DNA from: a virus
Lineage: Duplodnaviria; Caudoviricetes
Direction: 5' to 3' (one strand)
IMG/VR virus record: IMGVR_UViG_3300010048_000007
Location: 1 to 46,262 of that record
Length of the DNA stretch: 46,262 nucleotides
Below the pieces are notes generated by a model. It ran no database searches, was not told where the DNA came from, and saw only the letters and a list, made by a program, of their open reading frames with translations. Numbering within the stretch: position 1 is the first letter of the stretch; each line of letters opens with the position of its first letter. A program made the translations under genes and the position numbers. Below are positions 24,751 to 42,939 of this stretch, one piece after another.

Positions 24751-25037
24751 GGTTTGCCCTCTAACCTCTTCTCTACCTGCTTACATGTCTCAAGCACCGC
24801 AATAAAATTCCCACCCCCAACAATAATGATACAGCGCGCATTCGGCGAGACAAGTCTGCCATACTGTCGCGGTTCCCTGACAGAAACAACCGCTATCGGA
24901 TTAACTGCAACCTCCTCCCCATCTAGCCCTGTAAATGTAACCAACTCAATTGTCCCTGCAACAGATTCCGGCGGCGGATCGTCTTGGCAGGCACTCAGAA
25001 CCGCTAACCACATCAACAGAACACCAAGAGAAGCCAT
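24747..25037 (-). CDS. Lipoprotein with FlbD-like domain
   Basis: Lipobox VLSA|C; IELVTFTGLDGEEVAVNP...FIAVLETCKQVEKRL resembles FlbD family. Confidence 0.5.
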   Translation of the reverse strand: MASLGVLLMWLAVLSACQDDPPPESVAGTIELVTFTGLDGEEVAVNPIAVVSVREPRQYGRLVSPNARCIIIVGGGNFIAVLETCKQVEKRLEGKP

Positions 25038-25077
25038 CGCATCAGTTTGGCGCTAAATCCACGCCATCGGATAGAGC

Positions 25078-26364
25078 CTAGCCAGCCACTAGCTGCCATA
25101 CCCGTACATACTGAAAATAAAACGGATTATTAAACGACGTGTTACTCGTGCACGGAGTGCCAGCATCCCAATACGATCCCGACGGCAGACATGTCCTAAA
25201 GATCATCACCCACACAATGCCGTTATCCCAATCCGCCGACTGCAGCGCATACGGCGAATTCCCGGCGCTGGACCAATTCACCCCATCCAAAAACATCGAC
25301 ACAATGCCATGCGCCGAGCCATTATTATCCCACTTCAGAGCTATCGTGTGAAATTGGTCATCAAGCGGACCCCCGCTGGTAAAATAATTAGGACTGGCAT
25401 TATCACTACACCCCAAACACGTCGTAATCGGCGCGACAATACTAGGACCACAATAATTTCGGCTCGCCGGATTTGTGCTCTGAACTCGTTCGCACAAATC
25501 TATTTCCCCTTCCCAATCACCCCTGGCCCTAAAATAAATGTCAACATGATACCCATCCCCCTCACCGCTCACATCAGTCGGATACTTTGCGGAAGTCTCA
25601 AAATAGCCAAAGCGTTGGCCAAACCCATTCGTGGTATCTCCTCCCGCCGCCGAAGAAATCCTAGTCCAATAATTCCAATTGCCGGCAGGGATCGAGTTGG
25701 TCGGTCCCATGATCGCCAGCCCGGTCGTCGGACTGCAGCATGATATATAGTCGCCGGTGGCAGGGGGGCCGCTGGGGTCTTGGCCAATCTGCGGGTTCCA
25801 GCTCGACGCAAGTGATGAATCGCTTGTGAACTCATCATCAAATGTTAAATTCCAATGATACCCCGCCGGTGCCGGATTATTGAACGGACACGGCGTCGGT
25901 ACTGGGCCGCCAACCGACGATGTGCACGCACTACTAACCGCACCAGACACATCAAAATGCGCTGACGCACCAATATTCGTGTCTGCCCCATGAATCTGAT
26001 AATTGACCTTGTACCCCCCATTTATTTGCGCTGACGGAGCCGTAAACTGACATGACCAATTCAGCTGACCCGTCGATGGCGCCGTGCGCGCGCAATTGCT
26101 GAATTTCCAGTCATATCCAGCGCCGCCGCACCCGGCCCAATTCGTCGCCGCCGCCGTGCATATCGTCATATTATCATCAGCATTGCCCTGACTTCCCGAA
26201 AGACTGACCGTCATCGTCCCTCCGCCAGTCACTGTCACCGGCGCAATAGTAATACTTGCGCTCGGCGCGCTGACAACCGTAAAACTCGTGCTTACCGCCG
26301 CCCACGCCATCGCCCCACTGCAAACACCTACAATACAAAGGGCAACAAACCGCCAATTAAACAT
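25078..26364 (-). CDS. Signal peptide + Ig-like repeat + GH16-like (ConA-fold) domain
   Basis: WNLTFDDEF, FGYFETSAK, EGEIDLCE (ExDxxE), FHTIALKW, QYVRVWQ; 14 mature Cys. Confidence 0.78.
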   Translation of the reverse strand: MFNWRFVALCIVGVCSGAMAWAAVSTSFTVVSAPSASITIAPVTVTGGGTMTVSLSGSQGNADDNMTICTAAATNWAGCGGAGYDWKFSNCARTAPSTGQLNWSCQFTAPSAQINGGYKVNYQIHGADTNIGASAHFDVSGAVSSACTSSVGGPVPTPCPFNNPAPAGYHWNLTFDDEFTSDSSLASSWNPQIGQDPSGPPATGDYISCCSPTTGLAIMGPTNSIPAGNWNYWTRISSAAGGDTTNGFGQRFGYFETSAKYPTDVSGEGDGYHVDIYFRARGDWEGEIDLCERVQSTNPASRNYCGPSIVAPITTCLGCSDNASPNYFTSGGPLDDQFHTIALKWDNNGSAHGIVSMFLDGVNWSSAGNSPYALQSADWDNGIVWVMIFRTCLPSGSYWDAGTPCTSNTSFNNPFYFQYVRVWQLVAG

Positions 26365-26420
26365 AGTTTATCCCCTTGGGTCTTAGTCAACCACTAGCTG
26401 CCATACCCGAGCGTACTTAA

Positions 26421-27356
26421 TCAGGGATGATACACATGAACGTATTGCATCGTACCATCGGTGGTTTGCGGTGGACAATAAAAAGAGCCACCACCGCCTG
26501 TGTACCAAGCCACCGTTTGAACCACCGTGTTCGTGCCGTAAGGATACATAACTCCGGACTGTACTTCTATTTGCGTCCCGTCGATGTAGGTGCCATATAT
26601 GCCGTGATTATATGTGTTTTGCTGGTAGCCATCGATGTATAGGTAATAGTTCCCGCTGAGGCGTTTCATTCCGACGGTGTGCCAATTCCCATCGCGTATT
26701 ATCTTATCTACATTTACCCAACCACCGCCGTTGTCTAATCTCACGGCACTGGCCTGAGATGATGCTGTTGCATTGCCCCAGATAATCCTGCCCCAGCCGC
26801 CGTATTCCGGCATATCTATTTCCATCCCGGTGGGATTATAGCTCTGAAAAGCGCCGCCCGCACTCTCAAACCAAAAATCGGTATCGTCGGTACTGGGACT
26901 CCCGGGAGGCGTGATTCGACGTTTGTATTCAACATAAAAGTCGCCGGGTAAATTCAAATTGGAGTTCCATATATAAGGAAGAAAATGATAGGTCCCTGTT
27001 CCATAACTGCCACTCACGAGATATTCTCCGGTGTGCACTCCCTCATTGGTATAATATGGGAGTGCTTGCTGGACAGTGCAGGTTCCCGTTGTGTCCGGTA
27101 CAGCGAAGCCCTGGCCATAACCCGGCGGGAGTGATGTCACCTTATCAAAATCTGCAGAAGCCGTAGTGTCACACGGCCACGACACCCCGGCGGCGGCACT
27201 GTTGTCGGCGTCACCGCAGGTGCCACCACCACCGCCGCCACCGCCACCACCACCACCACTAGTGACGGTGAACGGTGTTGATACAACTGCATTGGCGGCG
27301 CCGACAAGAAGGCATAGTATCAATACCGCAAGAATAACCACCCGAGCGTTCCTCAT
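26421..27356 (-). CDS. Signal peptide + poly-Gly linker + GH16-like domain
   Basis: FYVEYK, MEIDMPE, WHTVGM, YIDG, QYVHVY; 4 mature Cys. Confidence 0.72.
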   Translation of the reverse strand: MRNARVVILAVLILCLLVGAANAVVSTPFTVTSGGGGGGGGGGGGTCGDADNSAAAGVSWPCDTTASADFDKVTSLPPGYGQGFAVPDTTGTCTVQQALPYYTNEGVHTGEYLVSGSYGTGTYHFLPYIWNSNLNLPGDFYVEYKRRITPPGSPSTDDTDFWFESAGGAFQSYNPTGMEIDMPEYGGWGRIIWGNATASSQASAVRLDNGGGWVNVDKIIRDGNWHTVGMKRLSGNYYLYIDGYQQNTYNHGIYGTYIDGTQIEVQSGVMYPYGTNTVVQTVAWYTGGGGSFYCPPQTTDGTMQYVHVYHP

Positions 27357-27377
27357 TGCGCTGTCACCGAGAAGTGA

Positions 27378-30050
27378 TCACGGATGATATACATGAATAT
27401 ACTGATATACAGTGTCGGAATTAGCTTGCGGGCAGCTATATTGCGGATAAGGGTGCCACCCTTGAAAAATCCAAACCATTTGTGAAGTAGCAAAACTCGA
27501 ATATTGTGGCCCACCAATGCCTTTTTGCGGTCCAGGCCACGGAGTACCGCCAACCGAGTTCGTCGATACCTGAACACCATCCACCCAAAACGTAAATTGG
27601 GCAGTAGCACTAGAGCCGGAGCCGGAGGTTGTCCTAACCATTCCTACCGTGTGGGGATTGGTATCGGCATTAAAATTGCCGAGTTGCGGCCATGCACTAG
27701 GCGGATAATAATTGTATCCTTGATCGCCCGGTCCGCTACCACCCCAGCCTGGGCTCCACAAGAACCAGTTCAATGTTGTGCCTTCAGGTAGATCGATTTC
27801 CGTACTCGTGCTCGAAGCACCCACAAGCGGTTCAGGCGGTCCCGGAACACCAGAATTTTCTGAAAAGAAATCCGAGTTTATCCAATAGTAATTTCCTGGT
27901 GGAAGCTGCCTTTTCTTATACTCGATATAGAAGCTGCCCGCTGGGCCGCTCCACTTGGAATAGGTTTGTGCGCCCACAAAGGTGGCGTTAGTACCGGCAA
28001 CATTTGACTGATGCAATCCCTGACTATCTAGCATGGGAGGATACCCAGTAATTGTGCTACAAGCGCCTGTACTTGTATCTACCGGCGTCAGATTGCCAAG
28101 ATAATACGAGCCTGCTGTCCATTTTGATGTGTTGAACACACCTCCATCGCGGTCAAAATCATCGCTCATCGCTGAGTCACAAGTCCAGTTTGACGGAACA
28201 CCAGCCGCAACATGATTATCGGCATCCTGACAGCCGGTGCCGCCGCCGCCCCCACCGCCGCCGTCGTAGGTGTTGCTGGCAAACCATGCGGCATAGTAAC
28301 TCTGCGGCGTACTTGGTACGGACATGTTGCAGGATCCCGAAGGAACGATCGCGGTCCCCGCCGTCTGCGAGCAACTATTTGTATACGCCCATGAATATCC
28401 CGCAGCGTCACAATTCGCACTATTAAAAGTAGCAGAATTACAGATCATAATCCGGCTATTTGCATTCTGCCCCGGCAGCGGCCCATTGCTCCAGGCAAAT
28501 GCCGCTGTAGAGCCGGCCGTCACTGTAGCATTACTGCTTCCGTTGACAGTGATGGCAGGCGAACCGCTGGTCACCGAGAACGGTGCCGATGCGCCGACAT
28601 TATAAGCAGAAACTGCAACATTAAAATAGTTAGCAACGTAATTGCCCGCCACCGCTGGTGCGATGAGCGAGCAGTTATTTGATGTAACCCCGGGGGCTGA
28701 AGGCGCCGCTTGACTGCAATTTTTTAGATATGCCCAACTATATCCTGCGCCGTCACACTGCGCGTTTGATGCCGTCACCCCAGCATTACATATTCCAATC
28801 CAGTCGTTCGCATTCCCGGCGCCGCCGCTCACCGCCACCGTCATGGAAGCACCGCTCGCCACCGTTGCGCCACTTGACTGCCCATTCACCGTGATCCGCG
28901 GCCCCGCAGCAGCAGTCACCGTCACCGTCTGCGGCCAGCAGCTCGGAGAATTGCTCACCCCACTCATCGTCGCAACTACACCTACGCGATACGCCCGTAC
29001 TGTACCAAGATTGGTTGATGCCGCCGTATTCAGATTGGCTGTCCCAGACGGCACGGTGAACGAGTTATTATCTGCGGTATCTGCCGCCGCGCACCCAGTT
29101 CCCGTCCCTACCGCATAGGATGCCGACGCCGGACACGTCGCCGAGCACGTCGTTGAGAGCGTGCCAACCGTTCCAGCGAAACCCTGTGCTATATTGTTAG
29201 GAGGAGGACTAACGGAAACTCCAGTGATCGATGGCTGGGTGGAGCCGCCAACCGTGAAGGGAGCGCTTGCATAAACCGGAAGGCTAAAATTATTACCAGT
29301 CCATCCCGCGAAGACAGCAAAATAATTGCCGTTCGTACCCGGCGCTGTCATCGCGCATGTTGCCGATGCCAGCCCCGTTGCTGGCGGCGGCTTGTTACCC
29401 GGCGGCTCACCGCTAAGAGAACTGCAATCTAAATACTTCCCGTCATAGCCGGCCGAATAACAGGACCCCCCCGAAACGGACGCCCCATCCGCATTGCAAA
29501 TCATCATTGTATCTGTATTATGCGCGGGGCCACCGCTGACCGCCACGCTGATCGAGGCCCCAGCGGTCACTGTCGTGCCCGTCGTCGAGCCATTGACGGA
29601 AATAGCTGCGGTAACCGCGCCTTGGGCCGTTATACTCTGCCCAAACCCCACGCCATTGACATATACGTTCCCAGTAACAGTGGTACCAATACAAATCAAA
29701 TATGATCCGGCCCGAAGTCCGCCGCCGGAGATATCGGGGCCACTTGGATTGATGCTCAATGTGTTACCCTGAACCAAGAAATCCTGATTGTTTGCTGAAT
29801 TTGTGGAGGTGCAATTTGGTGCCGTCACTGACAGTGCATAGGACGGACTAGTACATTGCGCCGGCGTGCTGCACACCGTCGAGATCGTAGCCACCGTACC
29901 CGAGCAGGGCGCCGTACACGTATTGGCGCTCAAATTCTGCTGCTGAATCACCGCACCGACAGTCAATTGCGTCTGCTGAACATACGCCAATGCTCCAGCC
30001 GACATTCCTATAGCAACAATGACGCTGACTATCCAGCCGCTGCTTTTCAT
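27378..30050 (-). CDS. Signal peptide + five cadherin/Ig-like Cys-paired repeats + GH16-like domain
   Basis: Repeats ITVNG...IC...C...GY.W...C...C and CS..C...C...NN.F; TEIDLPE, HTVGM, QYIHVY; 26 Cys. Confidence 0.75.
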   Translation of the reverse strand: MKSSGWIVSVIVAIGMSAGALAYVQQTQLTVGAVIQQQNLSANTCTAPCSGTVATISTVCSTPAQCTSPSYALSVTAPNCTSTNSANNQDFLVQGNTLSINPSGPDISGGGLRAGSYLICIGTTVTGNVYVNGVGFGQSITAQGAVTAAISVNGSTTGTTVTAGASISVAVSGGPAHNTDTMMICNADGASVSGGSCYSAGYDGKYLDCSSLSGEPPGNKPPPATGLASATCAMTAPGTNGNYFAVFAGWTGNNFSLPVYASAPFTVGGSTQPSITGVSVSPPPNNIAQGFAGTVGTLSTTCSATCPASASYAVGTGTGCAAADTADNNSFTVPSGTANLNTAASTNLGTVRAYRVGVVATMSGVSNSPSCWPQTVTVTAAAGPRITVNGQSSGATVASGASMTVAVSGGAGNANDWIGICNAGVTASNAQCDGAGYSWAYLKNCSQAAPSAPGVTSNNCSLIAPAVAGNYVANYFNVAVSAYNVGASAPFSVTSGSPAITVNGSSNATVTAGSTAAFAWSNGPLPGQNANSRIMICNSATFNSANCDAAGYSWAYTNSCSQTAGTAIVPSGSCNMSVPSTPQSYYAAWFASNTYDGGGGGGGGTGCQDADNHVAAGVPSNWTCDSAMSDDFDRDGGVFNTSKWTAGSYYLGNLTPVDTSTGACSTITGYPPMLDSQGLHQSNVAGTNATFVGAQTYSKWSGPAGSFYIEYKKRQLPPGNYYWINSDFFSENSGVPGPPEPLVGASSTSTEIDLPEGTTLNWFLWSPGWGGSGPGDQGYNYYPPSAWPQLGNFNADTNPHTVGMVRTTSGSGSSATAQFTFWVDGVQVSTNSVGGTPWPGPQKGIGGPQYSSFATSQMVWIFQGWHPYPQYSCPQANSDTVYQYIHVYHP

Positions 30051-30063
30051 ACCGCTAGTCCTC

Positions 30064-33000
30064 TCAGTTTATCGTGAGAGTGAAGTCTGTGCAAACCGTC
30101 GGCCTGAATTGAACGCATATGTGTGTCACATGTGTGCCTATATCGCTCGGAGTGAAATTGCGCGCTTGATAGACGCTTAGATTATAAACAAGGAATAAAT
30201 CTTCATCGCTGGTGGTTATCCCCTCGTTAACAACAGTTCCGTTATTCGTTGGAATTGTTGCGGTAGCTAATGGATTGGTAACAGCGACGAGATTGCCGTT
30301 CCCACTGGGTATGGTAGCAGTATTGGGGCGGGTGGCGGCGGTATGATCCAACGTGATTCCCGTAACTCCCACCGCCGTAGTAGACGTGCCGTTCCATGGA
30401 TTAATCGATGCCACTGGCAATTCCGGATAATAACTCCCATCATAATGGCTGTTGCCAAAGCCATTTGGCCATAGTCTGTCCATAGCAACCATCTTAAATG
30501 AATCATTGCCCATATTGCACGCTTCTTGATCAGTATTGACCTGCATGTTCTCTCTAAAATGAGTGTTGCCCGGACCTTGGATACTCGCAAACAAATTATA
30601 TTGCCACGTTAGTAATTTGTTATTGTGCTCCCAGGGGGAGCGGCTGCCATCACACCACTCTGTCCAAAAGATAGCTTTGTTATGCTTTGCCGCAAAGCCA
30701 GTCACCATCTGTCGCTGACTATTTGAAAACTGGTCAATATAAATGTTAGCTGAGCTCGGTGGGCCTTGAGTATAAACGTAGTCATCTAGAGAAAACGCAT
30801 CCACCAGATCAGCGATAGATACTGGTACTCCGGGTCCAGTATACTCTAAATATGGTATCATATTGAGTCTGGCGGGGCCGTCTATGTCGAATTTTAAATT
30901 TGGGTTACAGCCATTTGCCACGCCGCAATCACGGAGCAATGCTTGTAACATTTTGAGTTCGTGCGCAACAGCGGTCGACCAACGGGCAGGAGATACATAT
31001 GCAATAAAGGCATCTTGCTGCCATGGAGAAAAGTATTCCCAGCCACAGCACCATTCTCCCTCTATGCGTATGTAATACAGCATATTGGCGTCGGGCCTGA
31101 GATACGTCGTAATGATGTTACTAATCGAACTATCCCATGTGCCCGCTGCAATTGCATCCCACTCTACCGGGCCCTGTATATGATAGATCGCTTCGCTGGT
31201 CATTGCTTCGCTGGGAATCGTTCCAACATTTACCTCAACTTGATAATTACCAAGGCCGGGTCCTCCGCTGGTGACTTTGACTTGCCCCGATGGAATGCCG
31301 GCGGCAAACAATCCATCTCCCACCCTTGGTCCGTTGCCGCTGCTTATCGCGGTGATGGTGAGGGTGGTGCCCGAGATCGAGCCGGTGAACGCCGAATGAT
31401 AGGCAGCGCTGCTTATCGTACTAGCGAGTGGGTATGGGGTCCCGTCGCGGCTGTCCACCAAATTTATCGTATAAACTCCTGCGGTCGGACCAGTGATTGA
31501 TCCAACGCTCGCGCAGCATGCCAGAGCACCGTTCCATTCACTAAACCAGATCTGCCATCCGGGGTTGATCTGGGAAGTCGCCCAGCCCTGCGCGCCATTT
31601 ATCGCCGCCAGCGTTGTGAACGTGAAGTAGGTATTCCCTGCCGTGCCGTTTACCCCACCCATGTAATTGGCATGCGGACCCCCGTCCGACGGCGACCCAT
31701 TGATATTGACGAGCACCGTGCCCCACCCCGCATTGCCCGGGATGCCCGGCTCGCCCCCCCATGTGTTGCTGTCCACGCCCCAACCGCAAATGTCACACGA
31801 CGGCTGCCCACCAACGCCATTCGGCAATCGGCCCAAGAAGGCCGTGGAAAATGGAGCAAAGCCGGTGCTGTAGGCCCACTGCGACAGCTGCATCGTCATT
31901 GGAATCGCTGTCTTGTTACACTGCCCTGGAGGCGTGGTGCTGCCCTGCACCGGCCCCGGCACACCCGGGTTGCATGGGTCGGTGTAGATGTGCCACGCCG
32001 ATCCATCCCAGTTAAACCATTCAAAATTCCTCAAATCATAAGCGTATAGATTTGGGTCACCTGGAATTGTTTCTAGTTGAAACGCTCCATAGTTTGTCCC
32101 AGGTTCTTTGAAATTACCGATCGTCGGTGGGTTAGTGAGCACACCGTTGCGCAACACCGGCCAATTGCCCTCGAGATCGGGCGCAAAACAGCCGGAACAG
32201 AGGGGAGCTGTTTTGTCAAACGACCATGTCGCACCAAAGCTGTCTTGAATTGTAGCCATAGAGGCCGGATTATTGGCATTAATAACTGTCGCCTGCAGCT
32301 GAGTTGTTCCAGTAATAGTAAATTCCGTATACTTCGAAGGGCCCGCGCTTGGCTGGCTGGTCTGTACGCAGATGTGATACGTGCCAGCCGCCGGGGCTGT
32401 CGTATTTACTGTTGCATTACCAGCACCGCCAAGTGAAAAATTTGTGGTATCTCCTTGATCGGTACAACCGCTGCTGACCAAATTATACGACCCGGCAAAC
32501 CCAGGCTGCGACGGAATCATCACCGTACTCAGTGTACCCACCACTTGTGGGGTTCCCGGCACAAATAAGCAACTCGAGGGGCACGCCAGCGTCGTCGCCC
32601 CAAGCGTCTGCGATGCCGCGCTCCCAACGATCGTAAATTCCTGATTCAGGGAGGCCATTCCCGACTGCGCTGCCCGAACACAGACATAATAGGTGCCTGC
32701 CGGTGGTACCGTTGCCGTTGTCTGCAGGGTAAACGTCGGAGCACTTCCAGCAATCTGGAAGTGAGTCATATCGATTGTGCCCGTACTACAATTAGTCCCG
32801 CCACTAACCAGCGTCATCGAGCCCGCGAAGGTTTGCGATGTGGGTTGCATCGTAGCCGACAATGTGCCAATCGTAAGAGGACCGCTCCCTCCCGTATTAA
32901 ACCCACAGCTGGGATTGCATGATAAGTTAATCGCGTAGATCTGAGTAGTACTGCCAGCCACTGTTGCAACAACCGACCACGTACAGTTGTCTTGGCTCGA

Positions 33001-33384
33001 TGTACAATCCGGCAACACCGGCGCAGCGTTTGTCGACAGCGCCCCGCTCGACGACATTGTCAAATACCCAGGCAACGCGCTGGCAGTAGCCGGGCACCCG
33101 GATTGGCTCGGAGTGCAAAGCGCAAAAGTGCCCGACGGAGTCGTTCCATCACTCATATGAATGACATACTGCGCAATCGTCGAGTTCTGGGGAGTCGTGT
33201 CCGGGATACATAAAGAGACATTAGGGCCAGTCGGACACACTCCACTGCCAGTCGCGGTCACTGACGCGATCGTAGGCGGCCCAGCTGGCCCTGGCGGTGA
33301 GCCGCCGCTCGGCATAAACAGCGCGTCAGCCCGCCACGCTAGCAGCACCAGAATGGCTACAAGCGAGAAAAGCCGCCGCATCAC
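30064..33384 (-). CDS. Signal peptide + cadherin-like repeats + GH26-like TIM-barrel domain
   Basis: WDAIAAGTWD, YIRIEGEW..GW, VDAFSLDDY, KHNKAIFWTEW match GH26 acid/base and nucleophile contexts; 30 Cys. Confidence 0.7.
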   Translation of the reverse strand: MMRRLFSLVAILVLLAWRADALFMPSGGSPPGPAGPPTIASVTATGSGVCPTGPNVSLCIPDTTPQNSTIAQYVIHMSDGTTPSGTFALCTPSQSGCPATASALPGYLTMSSSGALSTNAAPVLPDCTSSQDNCTWSVVATVAGSTTQIYAINLSCNPSCGFNTGGSGPLTIGTLSATMQPTSQTFAGSMTLVSGGTNCSTGTIDMTHFQIAGSAPTFTLQTTATVPPAGTYYVCVRAAQSGMASLNQEFTIVGSAASQTLGATTLACPSSCLFVPGTPQVVGTLSTVMIPSQPGFAGSYNLVSSGCTDQGDTTNFSLGGAGNATVNTTAPAAGTYHICVQTSQPSAGPSKYTEFTITGTTQLQATVINANNPASMATIQDSFGATWSFDKTAPLCSGCFAPDLEGNWPVLRNGVLTNPPTIGNFKEPGTNYGAFQLETIPGDPNLYAYDLRNFEWFNWDGSAWHIYTDPCNPGVPGPVQGSTTPPGQCNKTAIPMTMQLSQWAYSTGFAPFSTAFLGRLPNGVGGQPSCDICGWGVDSNTWGGEPGIPGNAGWGTVLVNINGSPSDGGPHANYMGGVNGTAGNTYFTFTTLAAINGAQGWATSQINPGWQIWFSEWNGALACCASVGSITGPTAGVYTINLVDSRDGTPYPLASTISSAAYHSAFTGSISGTTLTITAISSGNGPRVGDGLFAAGIPSGQVKVTSGGPGLGNYQVEVNVGTIPSEAMTSEAIYHIQGPVEWDAIAAGTWDSSISNIITTYLRPDANMLYYIRIEGEWCCGWEYFSPWQQDAFIAYVSPARWSTAVAHELKMLQALLRDCGVANGCNPNLKFDIDGPARLNMIPYLEYTGPGVPVSIADLVDAFSLDDYVYTQGPPSSANIYIDQFSNSQRQMVTGFAAKHNKAIFWTEWCDGSRSPWEHNNKLLTWQYNLFASIQGPGNTHFRENMQVNTDQEACNMGNDSFKMVAMDRLWPNGFGNSHYDGSYYPELPVASINPWNGTSTTAVGVTGITLDHTAATRPNTATIPSGNGNLVAVTNPLATATIPTNNGTVVNEGITTSDEDLFLVYNLSVYQARNFTPSDIGTHVTHICVQFRPTVCTDFTLTIN

Positions 33385-33893
33385 TTTGCCCCCAACCCCC
33401 AGAGATCGTATTCCGGCTTGCCAGTTGTCTCATTCAAAAAGAAATGCACCGTAACAGCCGAATCCTTCCCCATCGTCTGTGTAAACCCTAACGGCGATGG
33501 ATTTGCGGTCACGCCCGGACCAGGAACAACCAAAACAGTCCCACCACTTGTTCTTTGTACAAGCGACAGATCACAGGGATCACTCAGCCCATTATTATTA
33601 ATCGTCACAGTGACCGGCGAGCTCGAAGTATAATGTATGTGCTTGGCACAATCCGCGAGCGTCGGCGCGTCAGCCACACCAGAAAACACTCGCTTGGGCG
33701 ATTGCGGCCCTGGCGGCGCCGTCATCGGCACAGGAGTCCGCGGCGCCTTCACGTCTGTAGAAAACGGCATATATGGAGTACCCCTCTCCATTGGCGGCCT
33801 CAACTGATGCTTGGTGGACGGCGGCATTCCCGTTTGCGCGAATGCTGGCAGCCCCGATGCCATCAACAGGCCCACCATCACGAGCATTTTCAT
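33381..33893 (-). CDS. Signal peptide + tail-fibre distal-type domain
   Basis: MKMLVMVGLLMASGLPAFA|Q; TLADCAKHI...VTVTI...LVQ..GGTV.VVPGPGVT...YDLWG resembles fibre C-terminal domains. Confidence 0.6.
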   Translation of the reverse strand: MKMLVMVGLLMASGLPAFAQTGMPPSTKHQLRPPMERGTPYMPFSTDVKAPRTPVPMTAPPGPQSPKRVFSGVADAPTLADCAKHIHYTSSSPVTVTINNNGLSDPCDLSLVQRTSGGTVLVVPGPGVTANPSPLGFTQTMGKDSAVTVHFFLNETTGKPEYDLWGLGAK

Positions 33894-33903
33894 GTATCGA
33901 TCC

Positions 33904-34656
33904 TCATGGGTGTTTCAATGCCGCGATTACCCCAATTACGGCGCCGGTACCATTACTAGGATAATTGGCCGTAACACTATTGGCACCGAGAACACCGTTA
34001 GGGTTATACCCAAAGAACGAAGTCCCAGAGAACATTGTCCAGCCGCTGCTCAAGCTCGCACTGGCACCACTATTTGCAACAAATCCCGCAAAGATGAGCA
34101 GCTCGCCCGTCTGTGACGCGCCCGCACCAGCAAGCGCGACTGTTACTGAGGTGCCAGTGGTTTGTTGCAGGTTGCCCACGCCATCATCGGGTGAGGCATT
34201 CGCACCACCTACATCGACATAGGCTATCTCTGGATAATAGACTCCTGTATAGCTCACGACCGGAATAATCGTCCCGTCGCCAGTCACTGGGCACCACCAA
34301 ATCTCCGCCTTTACTGGAGCGGCTGCCGTACCAGGACCACCAGCAAACCCCTGACAAGAACCAATTGTCGCTGTCCCTGAGCTTTTCGTTATACTTGTTG
34401 TGTAGTCGGTCAAGGTACCTGTGCACGACGAATCAGGGCAATAACTCGTCATCACCAACAGAATATGACCATGCGTAACGGTTGTCGCCGCGGTCGGCGT
34501 ACAACTCGTCAATGCGCTGGAGCCTGGGCAAATATATATCTGAAAACCAGTTAGCACAAAGCCGCCGCCTCCGCCGCCGCGAGCCAGTACCATATTGGCG
34601 TGTGCCGCTCCGGGCAGCAGCAGCAATATCGGCATCAATAAAACAAGCCGTATCAT
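33904..34656 (-). CDS. Signal-peptide beta-rich adhesin-like protein
   Basis: MIRLVLLMPILLLLPGAAHA|N, poly-Gly, two-lobed beta-sandwich pattern like 17795..18904; 6 Cys. Confidence 0.6.
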   Translation of the reverse strand: MIRLVLLMPILLLLPGAAHANMVLARGGGGGGFVLTGFQIYICPGSSALTSCTPTAATTVTHGHILLVMTSYCPDSSCTGTLTDYTTSITKSSGTATIGSCQGFAGGPGTAAAPVKAEIWWCPVTGDGTIIPVVSYTGVYYPEIAYVDVGGANASPDDGVGNLQQTTGTSVTVALAGAGASQTGELLIFAGFVANSGASASLSSGWTMFSGTSFFGYNPNGVLGANSVTANYPSNGTGAVIGVIAALKHP

Positions 34657-34694
34657 CTGATGCCCCTTGACTTACTCTGAAATACCTGACAGCC

Positions 34695-34883
34695 ATGGCT
34701 CCCATGGATGAAGAACATTGGAAGCCCATTCCCGGCTACCCAGGATATGAAGCCAGCAGCCGAGGCTGGCTTTACCACAAAGGAACCGTGACACAAGTTG
34801 CTCTCGCCAAACGCTTCGGCGTTTCGTCCATGACTATTTCTCGCGTTGTTCATTACTTCACTTACCCTGTAGCTCATCTGTAA
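34695..34883 (+). pseudogene. Internally deleted NUMOD4-HNH homing endonuclease remnant (NUMOD4 start fused to terminal HTH)
   Basis: EEHWKPIPGYPGYEASSRG (NUMOD4) joined directly to TQVALAKRFGVSSMTISRV (HTH); no HNH core. Confidence 0.7.
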
Positions 34884-37800
34884 GTGACTTGTACAGTTCC
34901 CCACCCTGTACTGCTCGCCCACCCCGCTCCTGTAGCTATCGCCCCGACCCAGTACCCCGATGGTATCGCTGGATAGGCCACTCCCATCGCCTGTTCGGTT
35001 GCCGCTCCGCTATTCGCGTTGCAAGAAGTGCTATTGACCTTGTACGCAGAACCACTATTAAACGCCACCGCACTAGCCGCAGTGTAGATATCTATTGTCG
35101 CAGTGCCTCCTACCAGGACATCAGGCCGGCAAGTGACCCCTGTAATCACCCGCGGCGTAGCCCAACGCCCAAATGATATTCCAACTGCAGCAGCCGAAAG
35201 ATTTTGCCCCGACCCCCACGTCAGATCGAAATATTGGGCTGGACCCAAAGGTACCAAGAACGCCCCCGTTCCTGTCACTCCGCTGGTCGTTACATAGGTG
35301 TCAATATCAGCCGGGATGGTTATTGCTGCATTAGCCGCCCCACCGCCGACTTGACCATTGTCAATCGCATCACCTGATGCGGCAGTCGGCGCAAGTTGTA
35401 CGGTTACTCCGACCGTCTGGATGTGAACTCCACCATTGGTCGCCAATGTCACCGCTGCCGGCAGCGTCAAAGTCAATCCAGCTGTAGTAAAACGAAATAC
35501 GGCCGCTGAATTCCATTCGCCCCCGGTAACCGTATGAGCTGATGGATTTGTCGACACCAATGGCGCCACAGGCCCATTGAGGCACACCCAATTCGTCCCA
35601 TCAGTAACAAACTGCGCATCCCAGGTTATCGCGGGAAGTGTAGCCGTAAGATTGAAACCGCAGCCGTAAATTTGCCCCGCGGCACTCGAAACTGAATAAG
35701 AGTGATTAGCGTCAGAAATTGTCGAAAACGACGACGTTCCGATAGCACCTGGTGCCGGTAACTGCACCGTAACTCCAGCCACTGTCGGCATATTCAGATA
35801 AGCCCCATCTGTTGCCGCCAGAGGAAAGGTACCTGCCGTGCTTATCGTCCGCACCCAGGCCTGAATCGAAAGAGTACCACCATTTGCGATGTTCTGGGTG
35901 CCGGTATTGTAAACGCTAGCGTTACTAGTAAGGCCGGGGTTCAGAGTGAAGTTGGTCATTGGGCAACCGCCACCACTGCATGGCGAAAGTGCTATTAATC
36001 GACCATCTGCTCCGACGCTGATAAGAGGATTCACTACCCCGTTCTGCGGCGACACCGTTGTATTCGGAATAACCGCCGGGTTAATATGGCCAGCCCCATC
36101 GAGCTGCACCAGCGCATTGTTGGTCTGACCCGTTGAGAACGCGAGTGGGGCATTCGTACTACCATTCGCGGTCGTCGCGGAGCTAGCAACCGGAATTAGC
36201 CCTGCCGTCTGGTTTGAGAGCCCGCCAACCGGCGCCTGAAAACTTGGCGCCACCCCAGCTCCGCCTGAAGTTAATACCTGACCTGCCGTCCCAACGCTCG
36301 CCAAACAGGAAACCGCCGTTCCCGTCGCCGCATAGTAGGCGGTAGAAAAGGCAGTGGTGCAATTATTAACTGTGCCGCTTCCCGACGCTGGCGTCCCGAG
36401 CACAAACTGATTGCTCGCATTGAGGCCGATCCACTGCGTGACTGTACCGGCCGCCAGGCCTGTCGCTGAGATCGCGCCACCTACCGACAAGGCCCCCGAG
36501 AAGGCGCCTGTCGTCGTGGAGATCGGCGACTTCTCGTTACCGGCCGCGTCGGTCGTCAACACGGTGTTGACGCCGGTGGTGTTAACCGGAAGGCTGCTCG
36601 TAATGGTCGTCGCGGAGCCGGCTACCGCGAGTTGGCCGCTCGACATTCCCGAAAGCGCCGCCTGGAAGGACGGCGGCCCAGAAGTGCTCCACGTCAGCAC
36701 CTGGCCGTTAGCGGTACCGTTCGTCAGGCACGACACCGCTGTGCCCGCGGCCGCGTAATAGGCCACGGAGGGAAATGTCGTACAATTGTTGACGGTCCCC
36801 GCACCACCGCCACCGCCCGGGGGGCCGAGCACGACCTGGTTGTTTGAATTGAGCCCTAGGGAGTTGACCACGGTGCCGGAGCTCAGGCCCGTGAACGTGA
36901 GTGCACCACCGACCGATAGAGTGCCGGTAAAGGCACCTGTCGTCGTACTCACCGGAGCGAGCATCAGGCCCGCCGCGTTAAGCTGCACCAGCGCGCTAGG
37001 ACCTGTGTTCGCCACCGCCAGTCCGGTGTTCAAAGCGGTGCCGACGGTGTTGGCCCAAGTCGGAACGTAACCAGGTGTGGTAACACCAGGGCCACTGATC
37101 CCGCCGCCGCCTCCGGCTGGCGGGATCCCCCAGCCGTTGTCCCACAAGATTTGCGTGTGATTGCTCGTGCCGGGTGGCGGAACGGCGCCTGACAGCGCGC
37201 TGGTGTAGACCTGGATGTTGCCGGTCAGCTGCGTGTTGGTTAGCCCGGCAAAGGAAGCAGGCGTTCCGCCAGCGTTGTACTGCACTTGCCCGGGCAGACC
37301 TTGTGCCTGGGTCACCGCGGCGTTCAAAGTTTGATTTGGGTAGGTGCCGCTCAGCGTGAGGTTATTGCCGATACCCAATGGTGCCAAGCTCGCGCCGCCG
37401 CTGACGACAATACCAGGATTTGGCACGGCAAGCTTGCCGAGGGCGCCGCCGCCGAGATTATTCCAGGTCGTCGCGGTCGACGCCACATCGGCCAGGTTAT
37501 TGACCGGGTTGAGCGGCGTGTAGCCAATGTTCGCCACGGCCGCGCCTACCGCCATCTTGGCGTTGCTGACCGCGTTGTTTGCGATCGTGTTCACGGTGGC
37601 GCCGGCGGCGCTGACCACATCGCCGCTGTAGGCCGGCATTTGGGTCGACGCCAACTGTCCCGCGAAATCAGGGAAGCCCAAAGTCAGCGTGCCGCCGAGC
37701 GAAAGCGAGTGCGTGTTGATCGTGACGCTACTGTTCGCAAGCTGCGCATTCGGCAGCGCCGAGATAGCGAGTTGCGAGCCCGACAGCGTCAGGTACGACG

Positions 37801-38059
37801 CCAGCGTGCCGGGGCTGACGGTGACCCCCGAGGCATTGTAGATCGTGATCGCTTGCGGTCCGCCGCTGTTGATCGTGGCGGTCGCGGTAAACGCCCCGCA
37901 GGGAGTGGCCTGTCCGCCTTGGATCGCGGTGACGCCTTGGCCGCCAGTGCAGGTGACGTTGCCCGGCGGCGGCGGATTGACCGGACCACCAGCTCGAGAA
38001 CCGGCTGGGATGAGCGCGATCAGCGCCGCGAGGAGAAGTGCCCTTAATTGTAGTTGCAT
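34874..38059 (-). CDS. Long tail-fibre-like protein with N-terminal signal peptide
   Basis: MQLQLRALLLAALIALIPAGSRA|G; fibre motifs LANSSVTIN, TIANNAVSNAKMA, GYTPLN..NNLADV, GTAGQVLTSGG...PSFQA; internal ~140-aa duplication; 12 Cys. Confidence 0.75.
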   Translation of the reverse strand: MQLQLRALLLAALIALIPAGSRAGGPVNPPPPGNVTCTGGQGVTAIQGGQATPCGAFTATATINSGGPQAITIYNASGVTVSPGTLASYLTLSGSQLAISALPNAQLANSSVTINTHSLSLGGTLTLGFPDFAGQLASTQMPAYSGDVVSAAGATVNTIANNAVSNAKMAVGAAVANIGYTPLNPVNNLADVASTATTWNNLGGGALGKLAVPNPGIVVSGGASLAPLGIGNNLTLSGTYPNQTLNAAVTQAQGLPGQVQYNAGGTPASFAGLTNTQLTGNIQVYTSALSGAVPPPGTSNHTQILWDNGWGIPPAGGGGGISGPGVTTPGYVPTWANTVGTALNTGLAVANTGPSALVQLNAAGLMLAPVSTTTGAFTGTLSVGGALTFTGLSSGTVVNSLGLNSNNQVVLGPPGGGGGAGTVNNCTTFPSVAYYAAAGTAVSCLTNGTANGQVLTWSTSGPPSFQAALSGMSSGQLAVAGSATTITSSLPVNTTGVNTVLTTDAAGNEKSPISTTTGAFSGALSVGGAISATGLAAGTVTQWIGLNASNQFVLGTPASGSGTVNNCTTAFSTAYYAATGTAVSCLASVGTAGQVLTSGGAGVAPSFQAPVGGLSNQTAGLIPVASSATTANGSTNAPLAFSTGQTNNALVQLDGAGHINPAVIPNTTVSPQNGVVNPLISVGADGRLIALSPCSGGGCPMTNFTLNPGLTSNASVYNTGTQNIANGGTLSIQAWVRTISTAGTFPLAATDGAYLNMPTVAGVTVQLPAPGAIGTSSFSTISDANHSYSVSSAAGQIYGCGFNLTATLPAITWDAQFVTDGTNWVCLNGPVAPLVSTNPSAHTVTGGEWNSAAVFRFTTAGLTLTLPAAVTLATNGGVHIQTVGVTVQLAPTAASGDAIDNGQVGGGAANAAITIPADIDTYVTTSGVTGTGAFLVPLGPAQYFDLTWGSGQNLSAAAVGISFGRWATPRVITGVTCRPDVLVGGTATIDIYTAASAVAFNSGSAYKVNSTSCNANSGAATEQAMGVAYPAIPSGYWVGAIATGAGWASSTGWGTVQVTYR

Positions 38060-38406
38060 GCGTAGGTTGACCCTGTCGCCGACGCGATGATCGAAATCCG
38101 CGGCGGGATCGGATCAGAAGCGTTCCAAATAAATCCCGCGCCTGGGGCCATGCCTGTCGAATTGCCGGTGCACAGCGTTCCCGAGATCGTCGCCGTACCG
38201 GTCAGACTCCAACAGAGCTGCGCACTGGAAATGTTTGTCAGCCAGACATAGCCCTGCGGTGACGGCGGCCCGGTACCGCTGGACGGAAAAACCACATTGG
38301 ACGCTGTGGTGGTCGCCGTGCCGTTGCACGCGCTAACCTGGCCCGCAGCGGCCAGCGCAGCCACCGGAAGGAGCCACAACAGCAGGAAGGCTATCAGGTG
38401 CATCAT
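38044..38406 (-). CDS. Small signal-peptide beta-sandwich protein
   Basis: MMHLIAFLLLWLLPVAALA|A; 4 Cys. Confidence 0.65.
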   Translation of the reverse strand: MMHLIAFLLLWLLPVAALAAAGQVSACNGTATTTASNVVFPSSGTGPPSPQGYVWLTNISSAQLCWSLTGTATISGTLCTGNSTGMAPGAGFIWNASDPIPPRISIIASATGSTYACNYN

Positions 38407-38576
38407 CTCTTCCTCGAGGCTCCACGCTTGCCCTTACCGGCCCCTTGTTTCACAATTGTTGCGTAGCCGATCGACTTAGCCTCTTTGGCCGATTTGCCCG
38501 CCTTGCGCTCGGAGGCCGCTATGTGGGCGGCTTGCCGATCTTGCTTTTCGCTGAAGCGATGTCCCTTTCCTGGCAT
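38403..38576 (-). CDS. Small basic protein (KQ.RQA.HI...YAT..K motif)
   Basis: 57 aa, GGAGGAG RBS, ATGA overlap with the downstream gene. Confidence 0.6.
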   Translation of the reverse strand: MPGKGHRFSEKQDRQAAHIAASERKAGKSAKEAKSIGYATIVKQGAGKGKRGASRKR

Positions 38577-39768
38577 CAAGCTCCTCCTCCAACTGCGCGA
38601 CACGCGCCTCAAGCCGCTGCACCGCCACCACCAGCGGCGCGATCAGGCCGGTGTATTCGAGAGTTTTGGAGCCGTCCGGTTGGGTTGTGACGAGCTCGGG
38701 GAACACCCGTTCGACATCTTGCGCGGTAAACCCGAGATGCTCGGGGCCATCCGGCGCGCGCGTCCAGCGAAACGATACCGGGTGCAGCTGCGCTATCCGG
38801 GCCTCGACATCAGGATCAAGTGGTCGAGTGGTCTTAAGCCGCGCATCCGACGAGCACGACCACGATGTGCCGCCATTAAAGAAACAGCTGCCACCGCTTG
38901 TGTCGACAGATACCGATAAGTTGCCATCCCCCAAATGTACATAACTGGTAGTATTGTCAATATGCGCGATATTTCGATACGTGTTTGATGTATCTTTTGC
39001 AACAAACGATTGATTATTATCTATACCAACACTCCCACCCGTTACCGTGATGCCACCGTGTATCGTGGCGGTGTTGTTTATAGTGGCGCCACCACTTATC
39101 GTTAAGCTGCCGCTAGAATTAAGAGCGGTAGAGTCGATGCTTGTGGCATGGAAAGCATTAGTAAAGAAAATTCCGCTGCCATCAAGGCGTACCACACAAT
39201 TCGATGTATGAGTGTCAAAGCAAACCCCATTTAAAGCAACATCGCCGACATGAATATTATTTGCGGTGTCGATGTAAGTTCCATTACGGTAAGTACCGCC
39301 CGTATCTTTGTATTGTATACCGACGTTGTTATCCATTTGGACGCGGCCGCCGGAACCAAAGTTGCTAAAGAGATTTATATTGCCGGTGTAAATCGTGCCG
39401 TTAGCTCCGGTATTGCCCACGTTCAAAATGCGAGAACTGTCATTAAATGACAGATTTGGCGGATCTTGCCCAAGCTGAGTTGTGGTTGTTGCAAAGACGA
39501 CGGCACCCTGCACCCAACCCGAAGTGTTGCCAGTGCCGCCATAAGTGACACCCAAAATGCCCGAATTGATGTTACTGGCGTTGGCGGCGTTGTTGCTGCC
39601 GGCGCAGTTCTCCACGGTGGTAAAATTTGCGTTCATCTGGCCGGGATCAATGACGGTGCCGGCAACGAAAGTATTCGGAACTTGGCACGGCGCCGCCATC
39701 GCGCGGCCCGCGAGGAACAGGAGAACCCCGAGGAACAGAAGAACAAAGAAAACAGCGAGCAGTTTCAT
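38476..39768 (-). CDS. Tail fibre with signal peptide, N-terminal anchor domain and C-terminal peptidase S74 intramolecular chaperone
   Basis: MKLLAVFFVLLFLGVLLFLAGRAMA|AP; PNTFVAGT...QMNANF anchor; SDARLK...HLGFTAQDVERVFPELV...LEYTGLIAPLVVAVQ; ATGA coupling to the nozzle gene. Confidence 0.85.
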   Translation of the reverse strand: MKLLAVFFVLLFLGVLLFLAGRAMAAPCQVPNTFVAGTVIDPGQMNANFTTVENCAGSNNAANASNINSGILGVTYGGTGNTSGWVQGAVVFATTTTQLGQDPPNLSFNDSSRILNVGNTGANGTIYTGNINLFSNFGSGGRVQMDNNVGIQYKDTGGTYRNGTYIDTANNIHVGDVALNGVCFDTHTSNCVVRLDGSGIFFTNAFHATSIDSTALNSSGSLTISGGATINNTATIHGGITVTGGSVGIDNNQSFVAKDTSNTYRNIAHIDNTTSYVHLGDGNLSVSVDTSGGSCFFNGGTSWSCSSDARLKTTRPLDPDVEARIAQLHPVSFRWTRAPDGPEHLGFTAQDVERVFPELVTTQPDGSKTLEYTGLIAPLVVAVQRLEARVAQLEEELDARKGTSLQRKARSASRPHSGLRAQGGQIGQRG

Positions 39769-41405
39769 AGGCCTGGCGACGACATATAGCCGGTGCGCTG
39801 ATAGCGCAGGTAGAGGTTGCCGATTGCCACCGGAACCGTCGACTGCCCGGCAAAGAGCATCTGCATCTGTTTGAAAACCAACGGCTGAGACCACGGTATC
39901 GTGCGCTGCACCAAGGCCCCGGATTCAGTTCCCCACCTTGCCTGACCCCAGACCGCCTGACCCCAGATCGCCGCCCCGGTGCCGCCATAGCCCTGGATCA
40001 TGACAGTCGGAGCCAGCATCACCCCCGTTTCGTCCAGGGCCTGAACAGTGAGCGCGTTGCCCGCGGGCAGTGCCAGCAGCAGCGAGCTCTCAACCATGAA
40101 ATTCATTGCCATCGCGCCAGTGTCCGGCATAAGGCACGATGTCGCGATGAACGTCAGCGGCACGCCATTCTCGGCATAAGTCGAGTTGGCACGCGCCATC
40201 ACCTCGGATTGCCATATACCCGGCGGCGTACCGGCTGGCGGAAAGAGATAGAACGATTGATCGGTCGCGCTGGCGGCGATGACCCCATAAGGAAAGGTAT
40301 GCGGTCCCGACCAAGTACCCTCCGGATTGCCCTGATCCTTGATCGTCGGGTGATACCAGTAATCGAACGAGCCCAGCGTGCCTGAAATCGCGGTTTGGAT
40401 CGTGACCCGGTAGACATCCTCCTGATACGCGGCGGCGGCTCGGGTCGGAGTGACTATGTTGACAAACGGCGACTGCACCCCCTTGCCATCTGTCCCGATC
40501 GGCTCCTGGATGATGCCGAGAGGGTCGATCCGTCGCAGCCCATCATGCGCTAAGAAAAATAAGCCATAGGGCGAAGATGCAATCGATAGCGGCGCCAACG
40601 TCCCGGTTTCGTTACTCAGTTGATTGACCGCCAGATTACTGGTGGTCGGATCACCGGTAATCTGCTGGATTGCTGAAGCCCCTTGAAAAGCGATCAGGGC
40701 CTGCGTAATACCACCGGTCGTTGTCGCCAGCGGCAAACCGGCAAGGGCGGTGATCGTCAACCCGTTGCCCATGCCGAGCACTTGCACCCCAGAGGCGCCG
40801 CTGGCCTGCAGCGGATTACCGACATCGGAGAACGCCAGCGCATTGCCGACCGCGTAGTAGGCTCGACCGAAAAACTCGGCGACGGCTTGCGGCACCGCTA
40901 CCAACGGGTTGGTGGCCAAGTCGCCGGCCGACCACGCCGGAGATGCCGGGTTTGAGGCGTCGACCCAGCCGAATTTGGTTGCCCCGCCCGGAAAGCCGGG
41001 GTGCGTGTAGATAAACCGAGGTCCCACCTGCGCGATCGTCGGCGGCACCCAGTCACCGCTCGCGCTGGTCGACACCGGCGTGTTAGCTGAGGTCACCCCG
41101 GAGATCGCAACCAGGCTTGAGATCGAGGTGTCCCAGCAGAACGGCTCCGAATGGCCGGTGAAGGTGCCGGAGGTCACCATGCCGTAGATCCGCGCGCCTG
41201 AGACAAAAGCGGACTCGACCCTGCCCGAGAAGCTGGCCACTTGGATGCAGGCCGGCCGCAGCACGAACAGACCGCGGGTATGCAGGCTCGGGATCAGGTT
41301 CTGCAGGCTCGCGGCCGCACCGCGGCCGACATTAGTGCTGTCGAGCGCGTCGCTGAGGGTGCGCCAGCGAAATGTCAGCGGGGTGGCGTTGCGCAGCGGC
41401 ATCAA
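39765..41405 (-). CDS. Tail nozzle / tubular protein B (P22 gp10-like)
   Basis: 546 aa beta-propeller-like, GLFFLAHDGL; follows adaptor. Confidence 0.7.
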   Translation of the reverse strand: MMPLRNATPLTFRWRTLSDALDSTNVGRGAAASLQNLIPSLHTRGLFVLRPACIQVASFSGRVESAFVSGARIYGMVTSGTFTGHSEPFCWDTSISSLVAISGVTSANTPVSTSASGDWVPPTIAQVGPRFIYTHPGFPGGATKFGWVDASNPASPAWSAGDLATNPLVAVPQAVAEFFGRAYYAVGNALAFSDVGNPLQASGASGVQVLGMGNGLTITALAGLPLATTTGGITQALIAFQGASAIQQITGDPTTSNLAVNQLSNETGTLAPLSIASSPYGLFFLAHDGLRRIDPLGIIQEPIGTDGKGVQSPFVNIVTPTRAAAAYQEDVYRVTIQTAISGTLGSFDYWYHPTIKDQGNPEGTWSGPHTFPYGVIAASATDQSFYLFPPAGTPPGIWQSEVMARANSTYAENGVPLTFIATSCLMPDTGAMAMNFMVESSLLLALPAGNALTVQALDETGVMLAPTVMIQGYGGTGAAIWGQAVWGQARWGTESGALVQRTIPWSQPLVFKQMQMLFAGQSTVPVAIGNLYLRYQRTGYMSSPGL

Positions 41406-41944: not shown

Positions 41945-41964
41945 AAATACAGTCTCCAATACAA

Positions 41965-42939
41965 CTAGAAGCCGAACGTAGCCTTACTCTTCGGGAGGTT
42001 GCTCCATCCCGCGCCGAACCTTCGTCTATCCAAACTTACTCTTCTGGCTCTATTGGCCATATCGTCTTTCATCTGTAACAAACTTCGCATTTGAGTTGGC
42101 ACGCTGTTGGGCTGGCCCTCGCCGAGAAACTGCAGTGCGCGTGAGTCATCGCTCTCGTGCATGAGGCGGCCGGTCACCGCATCAACAAGCGTATCCTGCC
42201 ACTCAAACCAGGGGACGGCCTCGCTCGTCGTGGGGTTGAGATAATCGGATGGTTTACGATAGTAGCGTACAAAGCACGGGTAAGCGCCCCCAGCTGGTGG
42301 CCAGACATATGCGACCGGGTTGGTCGCAAACGTTATTCCCAAATTGTCTCCGGTGGTCAGCACGTCTTCCCCATGCGAGATGTTGACCGTATAACCAGTG
42401 GAAGTGGCAGTAAAAGAAGTGACCTGTGCAACGGTTCCTTGTTTAATAAAATCGCTATAAATCCCGCACCCAACAAAGAAGCTATTACCCACAACATTGG
42501 TCATCACGCCGCTGCCTCGGGTCAAACTAGCAGTCGTTGTGTGAAGATCTCGGCGTAACGATGTATCAGTCGCCCAAAATATCGGGTAATTCTGAAACCC
42601 TGCCTGTTGCCACTGATGATCGAATTCATTGAGATCGATCGGCGTCAGCTGAAACGGGTACCCCGCGACCGGGTAGAACTGGATATCACCGCGTTTGGCG
42701 CGCAGATAATCGGCCGGCAGCGTGAACGGCCCCGAGGCCAGGGTTGCCTGCAGGTTGCCAATCGGTGCGGTGGCACCGGTGAAATTAAAGTTAAACGGCG
42801 CTTTCAGGACTTCAAAATCATACCTTTGCGCAAACCATTGCAACGCCAAATTGAGGCAAGCACTCTGATCGGCGGTAAACCCCGGAACCTTGGCCCTATT
42901 AGCGGCGATCGAGCAGATTTGCGCGGCGGTCAGCGGCAT
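41965..42939 (-). CDS. Head-tail adaptor / tubular protein A with inserted beta-domain
   Basis: MPLTAAQIC, FTLPADYLR, YVWPP..AY, VPWF; position before nozzle. Confidence 0.7.
   Translation of the reverse strand: MPLTAAQICSIAANRAKVPGFTADQSACLNLALQWFAQRYDFEVLKAPFNFNFTGATAPIGNLQATLASGPFTLPADYLRAKRGDIQFYPVAGYPFQLTPIDLNEFDHQWQQAGFQNYPIFWATDTSLRRDLHTTTASLTRGSGVMTNVVGNSFFVGCGIYSDFIKQGTVAQVTSFTATSTGYTVNISHGEDVLTTGDNLGITFATNPVAYVWPPAGGAYPCFVRYYRKPSDYLNPTTSEAVPWFEWQDTLVDAVTGRLMHESDDSRALQFLGEGQPNSVPTQMRSLLQMKDDMANRARRVSLDRRRFGAGWSNLPKSKATFGF

Follow-up and report, generated by a model that had tools for sequence, protein, structure and literature searches.

A tail-fibre gene with a predicted signal peptide, an anchor domain and an S74 chaperone in a soil podovirus, and a candidate dock for it on the nozzle

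The tail module of a phage found in soil metagenomes contains, directly behind the nozzle gene, a tail-fibre gene whose product shows a predicted signal peptide (leader), an anchor domain, a predicted beta-rich shaft and a C-terminal S74 chaperone (Table 1). This anatomy is confirmed. The reading that we prefer, with a probability of about 60%, is that the fibre would be exported by the Sec route, matured in the periplasm and joined to the finished particle at lysis, through a nozzle loop containing three tryptophans. An earlier note had proposed a virion fibre docked outside the cytoplasm, an interpretation which the present analysis supports in part.

The window, which is the whole stretch of DNA analysed (46,262 nucleotides), corresponds to IMGVR_UViG_3300010048_000007, a whole circular phage genome with a 123-base terminal direct repeat, classed as 100% complete; the sequencing runs that contain it are soil metagenomes, and no RNA run is listed among them. 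The phage is a short-tailed podovirus of approximately 46 kb, and its terminase and major capsid protein match PHROGs. Neither the nozzle nor the portal had a match in 50,697 phage records, and no cultured phage matched an 80-residue leadered anchor protein or the Trp loop of the nozzle. None of the ORFs scanned matched an integrase. A gene encoding a DUF1153 protein (11255-11659, minus strand, E 2e-10), which we take to be SciP-like, and a relative that sits on a contig of an Acetobacteraceae bin together give a weak hint of an alphaproteobacterial host. The late operon is closed by a gene encoding a PurD-like ATP-grasp protein (GARS_A, E 1e-6; 16478-17767, minus strand), found at the same place in two relatives (L055:17082-18389 and L058:3261-4706). 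Between the adaptor and nozzle genes there is an endonuclease gene (phrog_3322, E 1e-30; 41405-41959, minus strand), and a similar-looking gene occupies the same gap in one relative (L003:9420-10004).

Table 1. Coordinates, in the window, of the fibre gene, its parts and the genes discussed with it.
Feature	Position	Strand	Basis
Putative adaptor, 324 aa, no leader	41965..42939	-	Synteny in related loci; named by position only
Nozzle (tail hub), 545 aa, no leader	39765..41402	-	Fold
Nozzle loop with W480, W485 and W490, predicted to dock the fibre	39933..39965	-	Loop modelled with low confidence
Tail-fibre gene (430 aa) for leader, anchor, predicted beta-rich shaft and S74 chaperone	38476..39768	-	12 PHROG families, 9 of them named tail fibre
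Predicted Sec/SPase I leader, M1-A25	39694..39768	-	Sequence, rule-based call, homologue register
Met24, internal, 7 residues upstream of the conserved Pro, no Shine-Dalgarno signal	39697..39699	-	Register comparison
Anchor, about residues 26-66, with C28 (39687) and C55 (39606)	39571..39693	-	Sole match in the genome
Fibre body, predicted to be beta-rich, containing C183/C191 and C295/C305	38851..39570	-	PHROG fibre matches, cysteine positions
S74 intramolecular chaperone with S307-D-x-x-x-K312, then coiled coil	38569..38850	-	PF13884
Ten further consecutive leader-bearing genes	24532..38406	-	Own rule
Twelfth leader-bearing gene, behind putative ejection genes	17795..18904	-	Own rule

The start codon of the fibre gene overlaps the stop codon of the nozzle gene as ATGA, as the earlier note had read it. 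A contig of run X4 (sample S3, study P3), a run that is not flagged as a possible source of the record, spans positions 39442-40720, which include the leader and the ATGA junction, with 0 differences, so an assembly error is unlikely. An upstream in-frame GTG at 39894 was rejected as a start because it is inside the nozzle gene and has no ribosome signal. The predicted signal peptide shows M-K, an uncharged run of 19 residues, and then AGRAMA before the next A, an A-x-A site; thus, the 25 residues claimed in the earlier note agree with the call made here, which rests on our own rule (a hydrophobic 8-mer plus a small-x-small site). Tat export of the fibre was ruled out because the twin arginine is absent, and the lipoprotein route because the lipobox is absent. 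The anchor motif begins at P31 and is bracketed by C28 and C55, and the C-terminal part contains a Peptidase_S74 domain (PF13884, residues 307-361, E 2.4e-15, scoring 57 bits where the cut-off is 22), preceded by the pair C295/C305 just before S307-D; both claims of the earlier note therefore stand. The S74 catalytic motif is SDxxxK according to the accessible text of PMC10769870, and the fibre contains it as S307-D-A-R-L-K312. A single-sequence model of the mature fibre reached a pLDDT of 37, and the PHROG fibre matches reach into the body. A word search with residues 1-130 returned only the fibre protein itself.

The anchor is the sole match of its profile in the window genome, and three relatives whose whole sequence was checked have a single match each. 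The motif which the earlier note called a podovirus-type anchor is present, but it belongs to no named family: no Pfam match and no PDB sequence match of note were found, phrog_20115 (function unknown) was matched by four of 24 anchor rows, and the Atlas TM to PF03906 (T7 gp17) clusters is 0.28-0.29, under the Atlas bar. Anchor searches of 10 fragmentary virus records gave no match; as they had no positive control, they were left out of the evidence. When a leaderless protein with anchor and S74 was compared with cultured phages, the matches (best 40 of 643) covered only residue 46 onwards. After the anchor, homologues bear S74, Collar, Mtd and gp53-like fibre domains, leadered and leaderless proteins alike, in a domain scan of 78 and 101 proteins of which most had no family; leadered and leaderless anchor fibres also alternate at the same place behind the nozzle. 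From its position and company we infer that the anchor would dock the fibre to the particle. The fibre is likely a virion part, given that it bears the only anchor match of the genome, lies behind the nozzle and is accompanied by a nozzle that keeps the dock loop.

Export of the anchor-bearing fibre, as proposed in the earlier note, is well supported by the comparison of homologues. Nozzle scans gave 52 loci, and 25 distinct loci show an anchor: 11 are leadered, ten of them with the Cys pair, and 14 are leaderless, none with the pair. A profile of 24 mature anchors, nine of whose rows are Cys-paired, was run against two libraries, where it retrieved 576 and 5,818 proteins. The best 120 of the 576 and the best 150 of the 5,818 were examined, which gave 234 proteins including the query. 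After setting aside 18 multi-anchor proteins and two without a clear anchor, 214 single-anchor proteins remained: 138 leadered and 76 leaderless. The counts that follow are of the matches listed, which are the top matches of that profile and are not independent. The anchor Cys pair is present in 124 of the 138 leadered proteins and in none of the 76 leaderless ones, a distribution that points to real export and oxidation; 14 leadered homologues are without the pair. Cysteine counts of the mature leadered proteins are even and non-zero in 128, odd in nine and zero in one, against 16 even, 34 odd and 26 zero in the leaderless proteins. A small-x-small site precedes the anchor in all 138 leadered homologues by a lenient pattern, their leaders have a median of 23 residues, and these leaders stop where the leaderless homologues start. 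Two close phage relatives (L025 and L026) show unrelated leaders on the same mature fibre, and their DNA is near-identical from the cleavage site on. Most of the 138 leadered proteins are without genomic context, so that bacterial proteins are probably present among them. At least five changes of the leader fall on the nozzle tree, and the three independent pairs available (two agreeing, one uninformative) give p 0.5. In one single record (L047:5727-9746) nozzle, leader and Cys-paired anchor are in one stop-free frame, by fusion or by a one-base error.

Among known fibres, Burkholderia prophage proteins P0100, P0112 and P0115 share the anchor and the S74 SDxxxK motif, but they are leaderless and without the Cys pair. 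The K1F endosialidase and T5 pb1, which fold in the cytoplasm, share S74 with SDxxxK and also differ in having neither leader nor Cys pair. The MAT fibres of Bdellovibrio, surface displayed, combine a signal peptide, a fibre and S74 self-cleavage (PMC10769870, in the accessible text), so S74 fibres can be exported. By that same text, they are cellular adhesins with a beta-rich domain of about 130 residues after the signal peptide and are not particle parts; the window fibre falls outside their definition, with a 40-residue anchor after the leader and a gene in a phage tail module.

The nozzle was confirmed by its fold. Its model (pLDDT 83) gave a Foldseek list led by the podovirus nozzles of PhiM1, Pa223, Pan3, GP4 and P22; the best match by Z is the Pa223 hub (Z 25.0, rmsd 3.3, 447 residues aligned), and P22 gp10 reaches Z 24.1 and the SU10 nozzle Z 23.0. 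Between strands 468-471 and 498-502 of its C-terminal sandwich the nozzle contains the motif W-x4-W-x4-W, with a spacing of 5. A strict three-aromatic loop was found in 24 of 36 nozzles, against 0.6 expected from shuffles, and looser forms in six more; the loop had no PDB sequence match of note. For its co-occurrence with the anchor, 32 of the 52 loci were used, nine duplicates and 11 partial loci being dropped. The loop is present, in some cases degenerate, in 27 of the 32 nozzles: 26 of these loci have an anchor gene and one has a weak repeat variant. It is absent in five nozzles of three lineages, and none of the four with downstream DNA has a canonical anchor: one (L046) keeps a shortened anchor remnant and two begin with a different leader-bearing domain. 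In a tree built without the loop, the loop-less nozzles represent three separate changes; the association of loop and anchor has a Fisher p of 2e-4, a value that ignores kinship. The two different domains (L023:3042-4187 and L032:11149-12264) lie behind loop-less nozzles, are N-terminal, leader-bearing and Cys-paired, and may constitute a second exported anchor type. Five relatives (L002, L042, L049, L031 and L007) show several Trp motifs per nozzle, up to four; L002 and L049 show them in the adaptor too, and the L002 genome has one anchor match, so that in these five relatives docks possibly outnumber anchor genes. An insertion in the nozzles of many relatives (positions 161-226 of alignment A3) matches a phage decoration protein (8eci, E 6e-5); the window nozzle is without most of it, and the window adaptor has an insertion at 128-206.

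Two solved podovirus tails show how such a loop can work. In the Pa223 hub gp59, a loop with W363, W370 and W377 is the single anchoring point of the gp60 fibre trimer (10.1101/2025.06.11.659172, accessible text). The window nozzle resembles this hub in fold and in having one loop with three Trp; but the Pa223 spacing is 7 and its loop comes from the propeller, and the Pa223 fibre, modelled from residue 1-2 in that text and thus with no cleaved leader, has no sequence match to the window anchor. In SU10 the nozzle gp17 presents W839, W847 and W857 as a quasi-threefold star under the short fibre trimer (PMC9509320, accessible text). Nozzle fold and three Trp are again shared, but the SU10 spacings are 8 and 10, its loop is on blade 1, and the accessible text mentions no leader or disulfide. 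Since Trp spacing and loop place differ from both systems, they are taken as working alike, and the same loop is not implied. From the co-occurrence and these two structures we infer that the nozzle loop may bind the anchor, and it is likely the fibre dock. The adaptor, which the earlier note had proposed to model together with the anchor and which has no PDB sequence match, is probably not the partner, the evidence favouring the nozzle loop; a complex prediction of three anchors with two adaptors scored 0.00, which carries no weight for or against adaptor docking.

The same pair of anchor and Trp motif was found in bacteria. A class-wide sample of 401 genomes gave five anchor matches, two of them strong (the three weak ones were not counted), and two YD matches, and it shows the anchor with leader and Cys pair in a chromosomal, non-phage setting. 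The chromosomal order is the anchor gene, a 91-residue leader-bearing YD protein ending in W-G-x-G-x-W-G-C-F-x-W, and a 1,599-residue Rhs protein. This operon is present in three of 11 genomes of one family, and three aromatics end 98 of 116 relatives of the YD protein. All six plasmid records that match the YD protein, from cultured Hyphomicrobiales, show one to three leadered, Cys-paired anchor genes adjoining it, with its other side occupied by an Rhs or C39-annotated gene. The operon loci are L067:1942-8034, L072 and L073, and the plasmid loci are L076-L081; the hosts are Rhizobium leguminosarum 248, R. etli IE4803, Neorhizobium galegae, R. rhizogenes, Methylosinus sp. C49 and Hartmannibacter. 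The YD mini-protein shows a leader, a conserved Cys pair and the Trp tail, and the large Rhs gene is sometimes annotated as peptidase C39. The large Rhs protein of these operons is mostly leadered, which recalls the Sec-exported Rhs/YD polymorphic toxins of the WapA type as described in the accessible sources. No description of an accessory leadered anchor fibre and a Trp-tailed YD mini-protein accompanying Rhs toxins was found in the open-access literature, and this alphaproteobacterial operon is apparently undescribed.

A third setting consists of single chains. Five of the 18 multi-anchor proteins (P0122, P0128, P0155, P0171 and P0185) combine the Trp motif with anchor repeats on a single polypeptide, and a sixth (P0125) does so in a near form; by the strict pattern 13 of the 18 have no upstream Trp motif. 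The order in these chains is leader, Trp motif, membrane helix with a basic tail, second leader, two or three anchor repeats and a variable domain, which in P0128 is an FGE-sulfatase. They may serve to display proteins on the surface by docking to themselves. The presumably oxidised anchor thus occurs together with the Trp motif in three unrelated settings (phage loci, bacterial operons and single chains), and two of these would apparently be wholly outside the cytoplasm.

The bacterial operons also bear on one unlikely alternative: that the fibre is exported and never joins the particle, serving as a secreted adhesin, a decoy or a lysogen surface fibre whose dock would be a Trp motif of the host or none at all, perhaps after capture from an Rhs-type operon. 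The leadered, Cys-paired anchor does serve non-phage operons, and the surroundings of the fibre gene fit such a role. The leader rule picked out a run of 11 consecutive genes (39768 to 24532) plus 18904..17795, hence 12 of 27 genes in the window, and none of the other 15, which include head, portal, terminase, adaptor, nozzle and ejection genes. The 15.2-kb block 24532-39768 formed by those 11 genes has a G+C of 0.55, against 0.60-0.64 in its neighbours and 0.59 overall, and none of the ten leadered neighbours of the fibre has an anchor match. Eight of these ten have even Cys counts after residue 22, one ends in a GH16-like domain (26364..25078), and the last two look like small lipoproteins. 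Proteins of the block have up to 30 cysteines, the products of 30050..27378 and 27356..26421 end alike, and two block proteins had no PDB sequence match of note. The ten neighbours may hang on the anchor fibre or act free. Against the non-particle alternative, it would leave the particle without an anchor-bearing fibre even though the nozzle keeps a perfect three-Trp loop; moreover, the loop is missing in relatives without a canonical anchor, and leadered and leaderless forms take turns at one place behind the nozzle.

The main rival, likewise improbable, is the use of two starts, Met24 giving a cytoplasmic particle fibre and the long form, if made, being exported for another use. Met24, the internal Met to which the earlier note had pointed, is at the position where 52 of 75 leaderless homologues start, among the matches listed; no other protein of the 138 leadered ones listed has a Met in that register. 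Also, the relatives nearest to the window by nozzle (L002, L042 and L049) have leaderless anchors. Since Met24 is exactly at the leaderless start, an internal start stays a live rival. However, Met24 lacks a Shine-Dalgarno signal (-2.6 kcal/mol), as Met1 does (-1.9 kcal/mol), and Met1 is coupled to the nozzle stop by ATGA, like other weak-signal genes in the window. The window fibre also has the Cys pair never found in the 76 leaderless forms among the matches listed, and a Met near the cleavage site is present in just six of the 138 leadered homologues listed, so two starts cannot explain the family.

It is very improbable that the leader remains as an uncleaved signal anchor, with fibre trimers in the inner membrane that capture or tether particles and possibly a non-lytic or vesicle-borne exit: its uncharged run is long (19 residues against a median of 14 in homologous leaders) and no endolysin was recognised, but an A-x-A site directly precedes the anchor, the leaders of homologues are not unusually long, a lysozyme is present in one relative, and the solved dock loops insert at the fibre N-terminal base, which a membrane anchor would presumably block. 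Between docking outside the cytoplasm and membrane tethering, both offered in the earlier note, the former is thus favoured. As to lysis genes, none of the 70 window ORFs scanned matched an endolysin or holin family, the only peptidoglycan-enzyme match in the window being an SLT domain in 22858..20921. PF00959 is absent from the four complete genomes (the window, G001, G003 and G006), and the lysozyme of the relative mentioned above is a PF00959 match in a partial genome (G002). A PF05838 search matched nothing, its controls included.

In the preferred reading of export and late joining, the fibre would be exported by Sec and cleaved after A25, which would leave its N-terminus in the register of the leaderless fibres, as the homologues suggest. 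Disulfides, most simply C28-C55, C183-C191 and C295-C305, would form in the periplasm, again by comparison with the homologues. S74-guided trimerisation and self-cleavage before S307, as in the S74 family, would give a trimer of residues 26-306. Each nozzle subunit would then receive one trimer, whose anchor has a three-fold base into which the three Trp would fit, as the joint loss of loop and anchor and the SU10 and Pa223 structures suggest. Fibre and nozzle are assumed to come together once the inner membrane breaks, and since a short linear dock requires no co-folding, this could happen late; P22 and T4 reportedly add their fibres last, and in vitro, which makes late joining plausible. As no endolysin was recognised in the genome, the step of joining at lysis stands without a gene behind it.

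A broader reading, which we hold tentatively and at a little less than even odds, is that of a two-compartment particle, with a cytoplasmic head and nozzle and a periplasmic disulfide-bonded fibre, in which the anchor and W-x4-W-x4-W would be a general extracytoplasmic connector shared with rhizobial Rhs containers. Up to eleven lectin- or glycanase-like partners would perhaps be hung on the periplasmic fibre, rhizobia and their kin would use the anchor/Trp pair to mount interchangeable receptor-binding fibres on a secreted Rhs container, and phage tails and an undescribed bacterial toxin-delivery system would share and trade one docking module.

Tailed-phage particles are generally considered to be completed in the cytoplasm, a reducing compartment. 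The pIII protein of filamentous phages is also a Sec-exported, disulfide-bonded, receptor-binding virion protein; it is, however, joined at the membrane during extrusion and does not belong to a tailed phage with a cytoplasm-built particle. The virion of Xanthomonas phage Xacm4-11 contains four fibre proteins, and the accessible part of its description mentions no signal peptide. No tailed-phage fibre with a Sec leader was found in the open-access literature, taken as main texts.

S74 fibres themselves are already known; two-compartment assembly and a connector common to phage and bacteria would, once demonstrated, be new in kind. The anchor and the candidate dock peptide are found on plasmids of cultured, tractable bacteria, and export, oxidation and docking are therefore testable without the phage. 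If the reading is true, the 11-residue peptide, by capturing a 40-residue trimer, would provide a small protein connector, lysis would become an assembly step, and phages could recruit disulfide-bonded lectins and enzymes from the bacterial secretome for host recognition.
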